Shown in pieces: positions 30,217-58,833 of a stretch of DNA of 64,000 bases. Made by a program: the position numbers and the translations under genes. Where the stretch lies: assembly GCA_943354005.1 (NCBI GenBank), contig CALRBE010000001.1, positions 147-64,146 of the forward strand. Reading direction: 5' to 3'. Numbering within the stretch: the first letter of the stretch is position 1; each line of letters opens with the position of its first letter. The DNA comes from an uncultured Candidatus Saccharimonas sp. (GTDB lineage: Bacteria > Patescibacteriota > Saccharimonadia > Saccharimonadales > AWTP1-31). The notes below the pieces were generated by a model, which saw only the letters and a list, made by a program, of their open reading frames with translations, searched no databases and was not told the DNA's origin.

Positions 30217-31686
30217 ATGCCAAATTCAGTAAAACCTACCACAAATCCACCCAGTTCTGCCGAAAAGATAGGGTGGGTACTATTCGTGTTTATAAGCCAA
30301 TTTGTGGTAATTTTCTTGCTGTTTAATATTGGTTCAAAGGGTAGCAGTACTGCAATAGGCATAATCTTTGCATTATTTGCGGCTATATTGTTATCCGCAA
30401 TAAGCTTAGGTATTTCACAAGCTCGGCTTTCTCTTCCTGGTCAAACAACTTCTAGAAAGACATCAGACAAGAGCCCGGTGCATTCGATCTTAAGCGCCCC
30501 ACAGAACCAATCAGATAATATTTTGGAATCCGTTTCGGATGGTATTGTGGTCACTGACGAAACTGGCAAAATAACAATGCTAAACAATAGTGCTGCACAA
30601 ATTGCTGGATGGAATCCCCAAGATGCCCTAAACCTTGACTACCATTCAGTATTTGCATTCTCTGACACTAAAGGTAACCCATATACAGAGCAGCAAAACC
30701 CTTTTAAGAAAGTCTTTGATACCGGTAAGCCGATTAAGGATGATGCTGCTTTTGTAACGACACATAGTAGTAAGAAAAAAATAGCTGTGAGCATGAGTGT
30801 ATCTCCAATGCTAGATGAGATGGGAGCAGTAGTTGGTACGGTTTCTATTGTTCGTGACGTAAGTGAGGAACGGGAAGCTGCTCGGCAACGTGCTGAGTTC
30901 ATAAGCACTGCAAGTCACGAAATGCGTACTCCAGTTGCAGCAATAGAAGGATACTTATCCCTTGCACTTAACCCTAACGTTTCCAAAGTAGACGATAAAG
31001 CAAAATCATACCTTACCAAAGCTCATGATGCAACACGACACCTTGGAGATCTCTTCCAAGACCTTTTGACCAGTTCCAAAGCAGATGACGGCAGGCTTAC
31101 AAACAACCCTGAAATTATTGAAGTAGGATCTTTCATATCGAAACTAACTGAAGACCTTCGTTTCGTTGCTCAAAAGAAAAGTCTTACCGTCGAGTACGTT
31201 CTCGGTACAACTGGAGCCTCTGTAGGTAGTTCTAGTAAGTTAGACGGGAGCACTAAGGTTATTCAACCACTCTACAATATCTACGCCGATCCAGAACGAC
31301 TTCGTGAAGTTATTACAAACTTGTACGACAATGCAGTTAAATACACCAATTCAGGAAAGATATCCATCGGTCTAACGGGAGATACTAACGTCGTACAAAT
31401 ATATGTCAAGGATACTGGAGTAGGTATGGCGCCAGAAGACGTACCACATCTATTTCAGAAGTTCTACCGTCTAGATAATAGCTCTACTCGTACAAGCGGG
31501 GGAACTGGGCTTGGGCTTTATATATCACGCAAAATTATTGAGCTATATAATGGTCAAATCTGGGCCGAGAGTGAACTGGGCAAGGGAAGTACGTTCTTTA
31601 TCAACCTACCTCGACTTAGCAACCAGCGGTACGCTGAGCTTAGTACTAAAATGACCCCAACCGCAGGACAAATCAGCAAAAAGTGA
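30217..31686 (+). CDS. sensor histidine kinase (2 TM, PAS, HisKA, HATPase_c)
   Basis: The H-box is FISTASHEMRTPV, the N-box is NLYDNAVKYT, G1 is DTGVGM and G2 is GGTGLGLYI. Confidence 0.9.
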   Translation: MPNSVKPTTNPPSSAEKIGWVLFVFISQFVVIFLLFNIGSKGSSTAIGIIFALFAAILLSAISLGISQARLSLPGQTTSRKTSDKSPVHSILSAPQNQSDNILESVSDGIVVTDETGKITMLNNSAAQIAGWNPQDALNLDYHSVFAFSDTKGNPYTEQQNPFKKVFDTGKPIKDDAAFVTTHSSKKKIAVSMSVSPMLDEMGAVVGTVSIVRDVSEEREAARQRAEFISTASHEMRTPVAAIEGYLSLALNPNVSKVDDKAKSYLTKAHDATRHLGDLFQDLLTSSKADDGRLTNNPEIIEVGSFISKLTEDLRFVAQKKSLTVEYVLGTTGASVGSSSKLDGSTKVIQPLYNIYADPERLREVITNLYDNAVKYTNSGKISIGLTGDTNVVQIYVKDTGVGMAPEDVPHLFQKFYRLDNSSTRTSGGTGLGLYISRKIIELYNGQIWAESELGKGSTFFINLPRLSNQRYAELSTKMTPTAGQISKK

Positions 31687-31749
31687 AATTCATTACAAGC
31701 CAGTTATGCTACAATGTAATTAAAATAAGCATATAAGGGAATACACTAC

Positions 31750-32571
31750 ATGGCAAAAATAATGCTCGTCGAAGACGATACAAATCTCTTAGAAATATAT
31801 GGCGCACGACTTCTTGCAGAAGGCTATGAAGTAGTATCGGCTAAAGATGGAGAAGAAGCATTAGCTATGGCAGTCAAAGAAAAGCCAGACCTAATAATTA
31901 GCGACATAATGATGCCAAAGATCAGTGGCTTTGATATGCTAGATATCCTTCGTAGTACACCTGAGACTAAGAATACTAAAGTAATTATGATGACCGCCCT
32001 TAACCAAGCAGAAGATAAAGAACGTGCTGACAAGCTTGGTGCAGATCGTTACTTAGTAAAATCTCAAGTTACCCTAGAGGATGTAGCGCAGGCAACTAAA
32101 GAAGTTCTTGGAGATTTAGCGCCAGCACCAGCTGAGCCAGTGACGCCAGCACCTGCTGAGCCTGCTGAGAAAGCTGAACCAGCTGCGCCAGCACCTGCTG
32201 AGCCTGCTGAGAAAGCTGAACCAGCTGAGCCAGCACCTGCTGAGCCTGCTGAGCCAGTGACGCCAGAAGTACTTACACCAGCGACTGAAACGGCTCAATC
32301 AGTACCCGCCGAAATGCTACCGCCCGTTAAAACTGATTCCAACAATTCTTCTCCAGGACATACAAAAGTAATTAAACCAATTAATGACATTAATGAGCGG
32401 AGCGACGGCCTGAAGAAACTCATAGCTGAGGCGGAGGCGGAGGATAAAGCTCAGACATCCTCAATGCCTGAAGTCTCACCTCCAATGGTTCCTGCTATGC
32501 CCACACCAGCTGAGCCAGTTCAAATTCCTGTAATAGTGCCACCAGTTACGCCACCTACTCCTCAGGCCTAA
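31750..32571 (+). CDS. response regulator receiver with Pro/Ala/Glu-rich tail and no recognisable output domain
   Basis: The REC residues are canonical: LVEDD, IISDIMMP, MMTA, LVKS. About 150 aa of PAPAEPAEKAE-type low complexity follow. Confidence 0.85.
   Translation: MAKIMLVEDDTNLLEIYGARLLAEGYEVVSAKDGEEALAMAVKEKPDLIISDIMMPKISGFDMLDILRSTPETKNTKVIMMTALNQAEDKERADKLGADRYLVKSQVTLEDVAQATKEVLGDLAPAPAEPVTPAPAEPAEKAEPAAPAPAEPAEKAEPAEPAPAEPAEPVTPEVLTPATETAQSVPAEMLPPVKTDSNNSSPGHTKVIKPINDINERSDGLKKLIAEAEAEDKAQTSSMPEVSPPMVPAMPTPAEPVQIPVIVPPVTPPTPQA
32146..32266 (+). repeat. 42-bp tandem repeat (about 2.6 copies) encoding PAPAEPAEKAEPAx
   Basis: CCAGCACCTGCTGAGCCTGCTGAGAAAGCTGAACCAGCTG(C/A)G occurs at 32146-32187 and 32188-32229. 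A partial third copy follows. Confidence 0.85.
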
Positions 32572-54337: not shown

Positions 54338-54853
54338 CTAGCTGATTTTGCCGGGTAAATGCTCCACAATTAGCGGTATGCCGATAATAGGAACGGCTAC
54401 ATATGGATAGACCGCGGAAACGAATCCATTGTATTTTTCGCCAATATCATAAGGCAATTCTTCTGGTTCAACTGTGTAAAAGAGTGCAGATAGAACTGGC
54501 ACCTCTTGGGTAGAAATATCGGGTAAAAGAAACGCTTCTTTTGGAGCAAACAACATAGTTACTTGCGCGAATAATCCAATAAAGCTTGCTGCGTAGCCGT
54601 CAACAGTTTCACCAGATCGCATATCTACAGAATCACAGCCTATGCAGTAAGAGGCATGAATTCCGCACACTTTACTTGATAGCTGTTGCTCGGCAACTAT
54701 CTGTAGTCGATCATATAGTTCATCAAATACGTCAAATTCATCCTCATTGAGATGTAGCGCAACTTCGGCAAGCGAACAGGCCATATCCTCAACTGGCGAC
54801 ATGTCGATTCGCCGTAGGCCTGATTCTTCAAACATAAAAGGATCTTGTTCCAT
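54338..54853 (-). CDS. acidic orphan protein
   Basis: A 171-aa ORF, 49 nt downstream of glyQS and 54 nt upstream of rnhA, on the same strand. I recognise no domain. Confidence 0.5.
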   Translation of the reverse strand: MEQDPFMFEESGLRRIDMSPVEDMACSLAEVALHLNEDEFDVFDELYDRLQIVAEQQLSSKVCGIHASYCIGCDSVDMRSGETVDGYAASFIGLFAQVTMLFAPKEAFLLPDISTQEVPVLSALFYTVEPEELPYDIGEKYNGFVSAVYPYVAVPIIGIPLIVEHLPGKIS

Positions 54854-56305: not shown

Positions 56306-57001
56306 CTACATTACCCTGCTGTGTCTCTCGAGCATAGTACGCGTAAGTTGCACCAGCGGAGTCATTATCTCAGGAGTCACACTTACTTGAGATAATTTTT
56401 TTGCCGTTTCAAAAGTTATTCCTAAACGAAGATATGTAATGTGATGCTGCCCAAAAGGTCCTGAAGATTGCTTTACGAAAGACATATTATCAAAACTAAA
56501 ACCGTAGCGTTCATCGGCACTAAGCTTGTGGTCTTCAGTATCGGTCATTAGATTTGGTGTATGTCCTCCGAGCTTTAAGAGCTGTAGATGAAACCATGTC
56601 TTAATAACGTCTAGGGCAATTGTCTCGTCATTTAAAGCAGCAAGCATGTGCTCAAGCAGTATGAAATACTCTGGTTCTGGAGAGTCTTCAGTGATTTTAT
56701 GAATCATTTTTAAAGCGTCATAGGCGTACATAGTTCTATCTATATTCTTAACAATCGACCCATAATTTTTACGCAGACGAGATGATACTAAGGTGCCAAG
56801 TCCCCCCTTACCCGGAAGATACATTATGTCATTGGTACTAAAAAGTTCGATACCACCTGCCAGCTTGCTTCGTATCTTTCTGACTCCTTTAGCAACAAGT
56901 CGGATTTTTCCATTGTCTTTAGTTAGGACCGTAATAATACGATCTGCTTCCCCATAGTTTGTGCGAGTTAGTACGATACTAACTGCTGAATGTTGTTTCA
57001 T
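56306..57001 (-). CDS. recO: DNA repair protein RecO
   Basis: The OB-fold N-terminus reads VSIVLTRTNYGEADRIITVLTKDNGKIRLVAKGVRK. The start is taken at the ATG that overlaps the upstream stop as ATGA (56998-57001). Confidence 0.85.
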   Translation of the reverse strand: MKQHSAVSIVLTRTNYGEADRIITVLTKDNGKIRLVAKGVRKIRSKLAGGIELFSTNDIMYLPGKGGLGTLVSSRLRKNYGSIVKNIDRTMYAYDALKMIHKITEDSPEPEYFILLEHMLAALNDETIALDVIKTWFHLQLLKLGGHTPNLMTDTEDHKLSADERYGFSFDNMSFVKQSSGPFGQHHITYLRLGITFETAKKLSQVSVTPEIMTPLVQLTRTMLERHSRVM

Positions 57002-57381
57002 GAGTACTGCCGGGACATTATTTGATCGACGCTCTGGCATAGTTCCGATAAGGTTGTTCGCGGTTTAAATAAATACTTGTCAACGTCTAGTTGTGCCATG
57101 GTCTTACTTGTCATCATCTTTTGCTCTGGAACTGAACTGTGAATAATAATCCGAATTTTATTCCAGTCTACGTAGGAACGCATTTCATAGAGCAGTTCAA
57201 TACCATTATGCTGAGCTATCTTAAGCTCAAGAATCATAAGGTCAAATTGCTCAGCATCAAGCAGATTAACTGATTGAGCAACGGTACGTGTGACATTTAC
57301 GATATGCCCATTATGCTGCAATGCTGAACTATATATTTCAGCTAAATATTGGTCAGGCTCGACTAGTAGTATACGGTTCAT
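56998..57381 (-). CDS. stand-alone receiver-like domain lacking the phospho-acceptor Asp
   Basis: It aligns to CheY. DD becomes EP (LLVEPD) and D57 becomes E (DLMILELKIA). The T87 equivalent is S, and K109 is kept (YLFKPR). Confidence 0.75.
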   Translation of the reverse strand: MNRILLVEPDQYLAEIYSSALQHNGHIVNVTRTVAQSVNLLDAEQFDLMILELKIAQHNGIELLYEMRSYVDWNKIRIIIHSSVPEQKMMTSKTMAQLDVDKYLFKPRTTLSELCQSVDQIMSRQYS

Positions 57382-57384
57382 CTT

Positions 57385-58113
57385 TTAGACCAACGTCAAT
57401 TGCTGGCTCGGCATAAATGTCGCAGCAAGCCCTGATAATTTTTTATAATGCGATACGCGTAAACTTGACGACATAGTCTGAAGTAATGAATCGGCTATAA
57501 ATATGCCTGTTCCATTTTCAGATGTCAATTGAGATAAAGGCTGTGCGGCGGTCCCATACAATTTTCTAGACTTAGCAAATGTCGCAGCATCGAGGCCATC
57601 AATACTAGAGAATATTCCGGCTGCTATACCACGAGGAGTCTTCCTGGCAGCAAGCTTAAGTACAGGGCGTTTCGTAATTTCGCGTTCTGCATTTGCCGCC
57701 ATCAAAACCGTACCAATATTCATAAGTGCGGCGTGTAGTCCTGCAGGATGTGCCATTATGGGACCGTATTTCCCCGCAATATGCAGTTCTATATCAAAGG
57801 ACTGTGCTGACTGCAATTTCTGTAGAGAGTGAGCTACATCGTTAAGTGTTGCCGACAGTGATACTGATTGTAATTGAATATCTTCACCAGCCGCCTGAAG
57901 CTTTAGTGAGAGGATATAGCTATCTATTAAGTCTAGTCCCATGTCCGCAATATATTCAATTTCGTTAAGTCGAGTATTGTCTTGCATCATTCTTGCAAGC
58001 TCAGCAGTTCTAGATGCTTTAATTAGGGGCGTTTTCATCTGTTCAGCAAGCGCAATAAATAGACGTAACTTATCGTCTTCAATCTGTTGGTTATGGTAAG
58101 TTTGTGCAGTCAA
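57385..58113 (-). CDS. cytoplasmic histidine-kinase-like protein lacking the phospho-His
   Basis: The H-box-like FIALAEQMKTPL has Glu where SHELRTPL has His. It also has N-box-like ALMNIG...ANA and G2-like ENGTGIFIADSL. There is no TM helix. Confidence 0.5.
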   Translation of the reverse strand: MTAQTYHNQQIEDDKLRLFIALAEQMKTPLIKASRTAELARMMQDNTRLNEIEYIADMGLDLIDSYILSLKLQAAGEDIQLQSVSLSATLNDVAHSLQKLQSAQSFDIELHIAGKYGPIMAHPAGLHAALMNIGTVLMAANAEREITKRPVLKLAARKTPRGIAAGIFSSIDGLDAATFAKSRKLYGTAAQPLSQLTSENGTGIFIADSLLQTMSSSLRVSHYKKLSGLAATFMPSQQLTLV

Positions 58114-58170
58114 AAAAGTATCTACCCCCGTAATTACTTATGGGGGTAGTATAACTCACTTAACCTCTAT

Positions 58171-58833
58171 TTATGGAACAAAAACCAGATTCGGTAGGAT
58201 AATCGTGTTAAAGTCGGGTACAAATTGTGGTGATTCAGTCCATACCTGTAGTGTCTTGTCTCGTAATGGAACGATTATCATTGATCCCTGCTTGTCTCTA
58301 GATATCTCACCATCTAATCGGACCCCGATGACATTAGGTACTTTATCTGACTTGTAAGGTGTCACTTTAATCTTGCCCGCTTTAACTTGCGAATCAAAAG
58401 TCTTAACAATATTCGAATAATTTGAGCTAGACACTGTGAAGCGTAATGCCACTGGAAGATTAGATTGTAGTCCAGGTACAAAACTAGGATTTAATGATCC
58501 AGAAAGTGGTAGGTTGCTTTTAGCAGTCTCATCTACATATGCACTCCATGTTTTTGGATAACTAACTGAAAGGCTACCGTAGGTTGCAGGGCCCGTATAA
58601 GTGCGCAAAGGATTTTTGTCTTTTTCAGCAAATTCAGCTTCTTTTTTTAATGAGTTAGCTGTTTCGGCATCTGCAACAGCAATCGCCACCTTCTCGTCAA
58701 CTTTATTTTTGTATTCCTGTCTTCCAGAAAAAGCCCAAAGTCCAAAACCTAGTGCTATCAACGTAATCAATAGCGTAACAATAAAGGCTATTAGCCATGA
58801 GTTAATTGCACCTCTTTGATCAAGTCGTTTCAT
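58171..58833 (-). CDS. hypothetical N-terminally anchored protein
   Basis: A 220-aa ORF with one TM helix (WLIAFIVTLLITLIALGFGLWAF). I recognise no domain. Confidence 0.55.
   Translation of the reverse strand: MKRLDQRGAINSWLIAFIVTLLITLIALGFGLWAFSGRQEYKNKVDEKVAIAVADAETANSLKKEAEFAEKDKNPLRTYTGPATYGSLSVSYPKTWSAYVDETAKSNLPLSGSLNPSFVPGLQSNLPVALRFTVSSSNYSNIVKTFDSQVKAGKIKVTPYKSDKVPNVIGVRLDGEISRDKQGSMIIVPLRDKTLQVWTESPQFVPDFNTIILPNLVFVP

Follow-up and report, generated by a model that had tools for sequence, protein, structure and literature searches.

Glutamate at both phosphotransfer positions of a kinase-like and receiver gene pair coupled to recO in a Candidatus Saccharimonas genome

We analyzed a 64,000-nucleotide stretch of DNA (hereafter the window) from an uncultured Candidatus Saccharimonas sp. 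(GenBank assembly GCA_943354005.1, contig CALRBE010000001.1, positions 147 to 64,146 of the forward strand), and within it two adjacent genes that lie directly upstream of recO and encode a kinase-like protein, here called HKL, and a single-domain receiver, here called REC. Both proteins are of two-component descent, and both carry glutamate on the column that holds the phosphotransfer residue in canonical members (Table 1). The pair is predicted to be unable to run canonical phosphotransfer and, despite this apparently dead active site, bears the marks of strong purifying selection. We hold, with somewhat more confidence than doubt, that HKL and REC form a phosphorylation-independent complex of a pseudo-kinase and a pseudo-receiver that acts through protein-protein contacts. 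The closest public relative is an uncultured Candidatus Saccharimonas genome, which shares 93-100% protein identity over the locus.

REC is recognized as a receiver by PF00072 (50.8 bits against a gathering cutoff of 30.2), and the profile of its family matches KdpE, RR468, CheY and DivK at E values of 1e-14 to 1e-11. When REC is aligned, pairwise and by profile, to the solved receivers CpxR, KdpE, RR468, CheY and DivK, Glu8-Pro9 takes the place of the acidic pair, Glu52 coincides with the phospho-Asp, and Ser82 and Lys106 coincide with the Thr/Ser and the conserved Lys; in the case of KdpE, Glu8-Pro9 aligns to E8-D9 and Glu52 to Asp52. REC has therefore kept the Thr/Ser and the Lys of a phosphorylatable receiver, together with the first acidic residue as Glu8, and has lost the phospho-Asp and the second residue of the Mg2+-binding acidic pair. 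It falls within the definition of a pseudo-receiver (PMC12632262, PMC4395418), under which a protein recognized by the receiver profile must be missing at least one of five active-site residues, such as the Asp. Across 77 orthologues from different species, with an overall identity of 30-46%, E8, E52 and K106 never change, Ser or Thr occupies position 82 throughout, and Pro9 is kept in all but one. It is this constancy at such an overall identity that argues for purifying selection. Among aspartate-less receivers in general, Glu is the commonest substitute for the Asp, and the first acidic residue and the Lys are usually kept while the second acidic residue is usually lost (PMC4395418). Taken alone, REC looks like an ordinary aspartate-less receiver.

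HKL alone gives no Pfam match even at E = 10 and no match among solved structures, and a Pfam domain was found in none of 48 close HKL clusters. The HisKA and HATPase_c gathering scores are reached neither by the HKL of the window nor by any of eight further members, and HisKA matches just two of the 43 members of the HKL alignment (best E = 0.0097). The family profile matches CpxA at E = 2.8e-5, with Glu24 on the His248 column. A comparison by hhalign of the HKL family with the core of the window's own kinase, a single sequence, was uninformative (probability 0.15) and was replaced by HMMER alignment to P0231 and P0232. The alignment of a larger HKL-family profile to P0231, a canonical kinase, spans the full length and again places Glu on the His column; in it, the catalytic N-box Asn column is occupied by Ser, Val or Ala, the G1 motif (DxGxG) is missing, with its Asp and first Gly on variable columns, and the G2 box (GxGxG) is largely gone, one or two Gly remaining. 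We then counted residues over 276 HKL members. The His column is Glu in 240, Gln in 12, Asp in 11 and His in four, the N-box column is Val, Ser, Ala, Thr or Gly and is Asn in none, and the G1 Asp was likewise found in none. The phosphatase motif, an acidic residue at H+1 with Thr or Asn at H+4, is not retained, since H+1 is Gln in 189 of these members while H+4 is Leu or Val in 183 and Thr in 20. The four His-bearing HKLs have ATP boxes that are equally degenerate, and their partners are Glu-type receivers.

The AlphaFold model of HKL (pLDDT 76.7, pTM 0.77) has helices at residues 3-43 and 47-78 followed by an alpha/beta domain, and Foldseek matches it over its whole length to EnvZ, HK853, YycG, CpxA, DivL, RetS and ChpT, with E values down to 3e-9 and TM-scores of 0.6-0.72. 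The model thus predicts both the dimerization and histidine phosphotransfer (DHp) hairpin and the alpha/beta catalytic and ATP-binding (CA) domain of a HisKA-type kinase; no sensor, PAS or transmembrane segment was seen in the Pfam scan or in the model. Judged by the phospho-His, the ATP boxes and the phosphatase motif, HKL does not appear to be a functional HisKA kinase. It seems to be devoid of the sequence determinants of ATP binding, autophosphorylation, phosphodonor activity and phosphatase activity, and would be classed by sequence as a pseudo-kinase. The term pseudo-histidine kinase, in the form in which PMC12632262 cites it from Collins and Childers, denotes a kinase-like protein in which at least one kinase function is missing. 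The substitutions and retentions at Glu24 of HKL and at Glu8, Pro9, Glu52 and Lys106 of REC are not due to chance, since Glu52 is kept in 77 of 77 RECs and Glu24 in 240 of 276 HKLs.

The window also holds a canonical kinase and regulator pair, which scores 110 bits for HATPase_c, 52.5 bits for HisKA and 83.9 bits for Response_reg. Its response regulator has 273 residues; behind a normal receiver comes a stretch of about 150 residues in which Pro, Ala and Glu abound and no output domain is recognizable. A sequence-only reading of the window had proposed that both HKL and REC are derived from two-component proteins, that Glu occupies both phosphotransfer columns, that the ATP boxes are degenerate, that REC keeps the fold landmarks and the conserved Lys (YLFKPR) but has E-P in its acidic pocket, and that the pair at 30.2-32.6 kb is canonical by contrast. 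The scores of the canonical pair bear out the last of these claims. The others agree with PF00072 for the descent of REC and with the CpxA profile match and Foldseek for that of HKL, with the profile alignment of E24 to CpxA His248 and of E52 to the Asp of CpxR and KdpE, with the loss of the N-box Asn and G1 and most of G2 in the alignment to P0231, and with the alignments of REC to solved receivers.

Variation at the two columns was tallied over a wider set of 103 paired loci. The state E/E (HKL residue given first), which is that of the large clade to which the window belongs, is found at 77 loci, followed by D/D at 12, H/E at five, N/D at three, E/D and D/E at two each, and Q/E and N/E at one each. 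His and Asp occur together (H/D) in none of the 103 pairs, and it is for this reason that a phosphorylation-independent module would fit the comparative data best. The earlier claim of Glu at both sites holds as the majority state of one large clade and not as a fixed feature; the phospho column of REC is Asp at 17 of the 103 loci and Asn at one. In a sub-family among the metagenome loci (L086-L117), the H-box reads ALSDDLSLPLL, with Asp on the His column, and the receivers retain the Asp, while their second acidic residue is replaced by Ser, Thr or Pro. The HKLs of this D-type sub-family are equally invisible to Pfam. The two columns co-vary between sub-families, Glu with Glu and Asp with Asp, which could reflect a side-chain contact or mere shared ancestry. 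Gln and Asp at the His column are single-step codon intermediates between His and Glu in the genetic code, and a rough neighbour-joining tree puts two of the His-bearing HKLs near the root and two in nested positions, a placement that does not fix the order of loss. By mutual information, 13 of the top 50 inter-protein residue pairs join the DHp to helix 1 or the active-site face of REC, where 4.7 are expected; this excess, which is confounded by phylogeny and dominated by the split into two clades, weakly suggests an interface of the canonical kind.

The family is widespread within its group. An exhaustive search with the HKL profile gave about 260 clusters (50% identity) at E <= 1e-30, the best 150 of which are full-length proteins of 178-256 residues, nearly all of about 230-250, and HKL occurs in at least 181 species (one genome per species), nearly all labelled Saccharibacteria or Saccharimonadales. 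Gene order was surveyed in 80 genome loci (L001-L080), and 117 Saccharibacteria loci were gathered in all when metagenome loci are included. The order in the 80 loci is an LPG-synthase-like membrane protein, XseA, XseB, a 220-residue protein, HKL, REC and RecO, with GlyRS usually further on past RecO. REC directly follows HKL in 78 of them, the other two (L003 and L057) ending at or just after HKL, and RecO was found in 76, while the 220-residue PsbP-like protein stands directly upstream of HKL in every one. More distant HKL members show an unchanged gene order, and among the 117 loci the order PsbP-like protein, HKL, REC, RecO is kept wherever the contig is long enough. A protein search with a broader profile and a search with RecO returned only members of the same family and close RecO relatives, and did not reach the oral Saccharibacteria.

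Sequence conservation around the start codons suggests how these genes are expressed. For this count we used 80 sequences, namely 79 related loci and the window, and found a -10-like box upstream of HKL in 79 of them; the box nearest to the start is TATACT in 57, TATAAT in 15 and another variant in seven, and in most sequences its spacing to the HKL start codon is 20-37 nt. TATACT is present upstream of HKL in 59 of the 80 compared with 1.7% of random 80-nt windows. Shine-Dalgarno-like motifs stand before HKL in 75% of loci, compared with 9% for REC and 12% for RecO. In the window, HKL and REC are spaced by 3 nt, and the REC stop codon TGA (56998-57000) and an ATG (56999-57001) overlap as ATGA; across relatives, HKL and REC are spaced by -4 to +6 nt in 78 of 102 loci, and REC and recO share 4 nt in 79 of 99. 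With the conserved box standing before HKL and the Shine-Dalgarno motif largely confined to it, the transcription unit starts at HKL and the downstream cistrons rely on coupling. HKL, REC and recO thus make up one operon, with its own conserved -10 box and one ribosome-binding site before HKL, from which REC and RecO are made by translational coupling; in the window, too, a Shine-Dalgarno is lacking before recO. The ATG at 57001 is the likely recO start, because RecO_N begins at residue 14 of the longer open reading frame (ORF) and because RecO homologues are 230-231 residues long; the identity of the protein is indicated by RecO_N (67.3 bits), RecO_C (39 bits) and TIGR00613 (86.8 bits). The sequence-only reading was right about the tight coupling to recO, with its 3-nt gap and ATGA overlap, and the linkage that it wanted surveyed in relatives proves to be kept, pair and recO together, in every related locus that is long enough. 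The start codon of HKL is GTG or TTG in 44% of 114 loci, whereas that of REC and of RecO is ATG in more than 90%, and the non-ATG starts of HKL may keep expression of the whole operon low. The 220-residue PsbP-like gene, in which a Pfam scan gave no match, is probably a separate transcription unit because it lies upstream of the conserved promoter box.

A link to growth is provided by published transposon insertion sequencing (Tn-seq) in the cultured relative Southlakia epibionticum, for which calls at three time points (T0/T1/T2) are listed in Table S1 of PMC10633639. The Southlakia locus has the same gene order with 4-nt overlaps, and orthology with HKL and REC is assigned by synteny only. 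The kinase-like gene (SEML1_0246, 708 bp) is called growth-defective, growth-defective and essential (GD/GD/ES) at the three time points, and the receiver gene (SEML1_0247, 366 bp) goes from non-essential through growth-defective to essential (NE/GD/ES). The gene for the 220-residue protein upstream (SEML1_0245), labelled Mog1p/PsbP-like and flagged as Patescibacteria-enriched (PMC10633639 Tables S1 and S2), is essential throughout (ES/ES/ES). RecO (SEML1_0248) and RecF (SEML1_0003) are both NE/NE/GD, XseA and XseB (SEML1_0242 and SEML1_0243) are NE, the canonical PAS kinase (SEML1_0318) is NE/NE/NE and its regulator (SEML1_0317) is NE/NE/GD (PMC10633639). These calls suggest that Southlakia requires its syntenic counterparts of HKL and REC in order to grow. 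A polar effect is an unlikely cause of their essentiality, because insertions in RecO, which is nearer to the essential glyS, are tolerated.

Table 1. Features of the HKL-REC-recO locus and of the genes compared with it, in window coordinates
Feature	Position	Strand	Description
HKL	57385..58113	minus	kinase-like gene, 242 aa, TTG start; predicted cytoplasmic pseudo-histidine kinase
HKL domains			DHp hairpin, residues ~3-78; degenerate CA domain, residues ~82-242
HKL Glu24 codon (GAA)	58042..58044	minus	phospho-His column of the H-box; LAEQMKTPL compared with SHELRTPL
REC	56998..57381	minus	127 aa, single-domain predicted pseudo-receiver (aspartate-less receiver)
REC Glu8-Pro9 codons	57355..57360	minus	in place of the Mg2+-binding acidic pair
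REC Glu52 codon (GAG)	57226..57228	minus	phospho-Asp column, MILELKIA
REC Lys106 codon	57064..57066	minus	conserved active-site Lys, YLFKP
recO	56306..57001	minus	231 aa counted from the ATG at 57001
PsbP-like gene	58171..58833	minus	220 aa, upstream neighbour; N-terminal transmembrane helix and extracytoplasmic domain
-10-like promoter box	58148..58153	minus	TATACT, conserved; 34 nt 5' of the HKL start codon
Hairpin	58122..58149	minus	CUACCCCC-(12 nt)-GGGGGUAG, then U6 run at 58112-58117
HKL Shine-Dalgarno	58125-58129	minus	GGGGG, which is the 3' arm of the hairpin
Canonical pair	30217-32571		kinase and response regulator
Canonical PAS kinase	30217-31686		
Canonical response regulator	31750-32571	plus	
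Acidic ORF	54338-54853	minus	171 aa, between RNase H and GlyRS

On the reading that we favour, a former two-component system would have given up phosphotransfer and put contacts to use instead. Glu52 would stand in for a phospho-Asp, kept in place by Lys106 and the invariant Ser/Thr82, and this mimicry would lock REC in an active-like conformation. REC would be permanently seated on the DHp helices of an HKL dimer, much as the pseudo-kinase DivL binds phospho-DivK and ChpT binds a receiver. Some growth-essential process would have the complex as its adaptor or regulator, while the link with recO would serve to fix relative expression, with no service to RecO-dependent repair implied. Of the mechanism put forward by the sequence-only reading, the phosphorylation-independent part fits best, whereas a partner switch of the anti-sigma type finds no support in the neighbourhood or in the domains. 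That candidate, modelled on SpoIIAB or RsbW with a STAS protein, was rejected: HKL has a DHp hairpin and has lost its ATP boxes, and the neighbourhood genes (PsbP-like, XseAB, RecO and GlyRS) include no STAS or anti-sigma partner. Kinases of the SpoIIAB/RsbW type have no DHp hairpin.

Several known systems resemble parts of this arrangement. DivL of Caulobacter crescentus, like HKL, has a kinase fold without a phospho-His, with Tyr in its place, and its DHp-CA region binds a single-domain receiver instead of phosphorylating it (PMC4211667, PMC5361649). The kinase region of DivL is one of the closest structural neighbours of HKL (TM-scores 0.68/0.72), and DivK is among the receivers of the Protein Data Bank matched by the REC profile (E = 2.9e-11). 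DivL differs in being large and membrane-anchored with PAS domains, whereas HKL is a bare DHp-CA protein of 242 residues, and DivK is a true receiver in which phosphorylation matters, whereas REC is predicted not to be phosphorylatable and has no known downstream kinase like CckA. ChpT and Spo0B are likewise small cytoplasmic proteins with a DHp and a degenerate CA domain, no ATP boxes and a receiver that docks on them, and ChpT structures match the HKL model at E of about 6e-7; they keep the His and shuttle phosphate, whereas HKL has Glu. HKL thus has the fold and the degenerate CA domain of a phosphotransferase of the ChpT/Spo0B type, and not its phosphorylatable His. REC shares the pattern of the pseudo-receivers ChxR, plant PRRs, FrzS, RitR and NblR (PMC4395418, PMC12632262). 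Most characterized bacterial pseudo-receivers, however, are orphans with output domains, whereas REC is a single domain with a co-encoded, apparently dead kinase-like partner. RetS also uses a kinase fold for binding and not for catalysis, by DHp heterodimerization with GacS, but sensor and receiver domains form part of it and its target kinase is known, whereas none is known for HKL.

A number of observations weigh against the phosphorylation-independent complex. An acidic residue is not strictly required on the His column, where a few HKLs have Gln, Asn, His, Ala, Leu, Arg or Tyr, and the REC column appears as Asp or Asn in one sub-family; given these minor residues at both columns, a single phosphomimic account cannot cover all members. 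D-type RECs retain an Asp, to which some other donor could in principle transfer a phosphate. That REC binds HKL is deduced from homology and co-inheritance only, and neither protein has an output domain or a known target. In addition, the Southlakia pair has Pfam scores (HATPase_c c-E 1.1e-9, HisKA 5.3e-8, Response_reg 6e-22; PMC10633639) that are better than those of any HKL or REC member scanned, so that the orthologue behind the Tn-seq evidence may be a less degenerate one. An extended form of the favoured reading, which we offer tentatively and regard as possible though on the unlikely side, would make the pair a class-wide, growth-essential module without phosphate, in which the HKL scaffold, without His and blind to ATP, is permanently engaged by a REC frozen "on", with facing, co-varying side chains at the two former phospho-sites, and controls the asymmetric mother/swarmer budding cycle as DivL and DivK do in Caulobacter, with recO, and hence repair capacity, following the same programme.

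Given the position of recO, the pair might instead serve recombinational repair, with REC, alone or together with HKL, controlling or assisting RecO (for example its loading or activity). This is what the ATGA overlap in 79 of 99 loci would lead one to expect, as would the 88% of recO genes that have no ribosome-binding site of their own and the xseA and xseB genes just upstream in most loci. On the other hand, the conserved promoter box separates HKL from xseAB and the PsbP-like gene, which hence lie outside the HKL-REC-recO unit, and recO is found in mixed operons in other bacteria too, such as era-recO. In Southlakia, moreover, the kinase-like and receiver genes become essential, while RecO and RecF are NE/NE/GD and XseAB NE (PMC10633639 Table S1). 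This contrast with RecO indicates that the link to recO is operonic and does not support a repair function, so that we regard this explanation as unlikely. Of the co-expression with repair that the sequence-only reading had suggested, the membership of recO in the operon stands, and a functional tie to repair does not, RecO, RecF and XseAB being non-essential or growth-defective by Tn-seq.

We think it quite unlikely that HKL is a decoy in the manner of RetS, either forming a DHp heterodimer with the PAS kinase of the canonical pair or titrating its regulator, with REC as a co-decoy. RetS kinase regions are indeed among the Foldseek matches of HKL (E of about 2e-7), a canonical PAS kinase and regulator pair is present both in the window and in Southlakia, and competition for binding has already been proposed for pseudo-kinases (PMC12632262). 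However, the DHp of HKL aligns poorly with the window's own kinase, and in Southlakia the PAS kinase is non-essential and its regulator growth-defective only at the last time point, whereas the pseudo-pair becomes essential, a pattern that fits a decoy only if its loss is toxic.

An altered chemistry, in which an acyl-phosphate forms on Glu or Asp, Glu is methylated, or phosphotransfer runs through the His or Asp that some lineages keep, with non-canonical ATP binding, strikes us as improbable. It would account for the invariance of Ser/Thr82 and Lys106, which normally hold the phosphoryl group, and for the His of some members and the Asp of others, and a modified Glu has been suggested as possible in receivers without the Asp (PMC4395418). 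Set against this, no member has His and Asp together, the position of the Mg2+ ligand is Pro, Ser or Thr, and the N-box Asn and the G1 Asp are seen in 0 of 276 members; the methyltransferase that certain lineages have nearby shows no conservation, and its Southlakia counterpart is non-essential. Barely credible is a decaying two-component relic retained only for the promoter and coupling needs of recO, for although every catalytic motif is gone and REC evolves faster than RecO (30-46% compared with 39-63% identity), both frames are intact at every locus examined, several positions are invariant class-wide, the family comprises about 260 clusters (50% identity, E <= 1e-30) of which the 150 best are full-length, and the Southlakia orthologues are needed for growth.

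We found no paper that describes the HKL/REC pair, which appears in the literature only as table rows in PMC10633639. What is new is a cognate pair that is apparently dead on both sides, class-wide and probably needed for growth, and not a new category of protein. A 2025 review calls the switching of bacterial pseudo-receivers still a mystery, nearly all of the studied cases being orphans (PMC12632262). Pseudo-receivers and pseudo-kinases are common; here, both cognate partners appear to be dead, yet they are co-encoded, coupled and conserved across a class of ultrasmall episymbionts. Southlakia epibionticum is transformable, so that whether a phosphomimic pair can replace phosphotransfer is open to a direct approach. 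The assignment also corrects annotation, as proteins of the HKL and REC type go without a name in public sources, are labelled "hypothetical" or are listed under generic kinase names.

The interval between the PsbP-like gene and HKL (58112-58153) contains a hairpin with a fold energy of -25.2 kcal/mol (z = -3.4), which only the closest relatives share and which does not extend to the family as a whole. Its 5' arm overlaps the -10 box, and the U-run that follows it holds the TTG start of HKL. The hairpin could act as a terminator of the upstream gene and could mask the HKL ribosome site on read-through transcripts. A scan of the region for consensus terminators and promoters gave fewer sites than shuffled sequences and missed the hairpin owing to its 12-nt loop.

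A search for defence systems with PADLOC gave only weak receiver-type matches, and a link to defence was set aside. Between xseB and the PsbP-like gene, some lineages have an additional gene (L082 1118-1615, L083 3235-3732) for a small class I SAM-dependent methyltransferase, and its Southlakia counterpart, SEML1_0244, is non-essential. On the far side of recO, the acidic ORF listed in Table 1 has no Pfam match and was found only in a few of the closest relatives, at three of the 80 loci.

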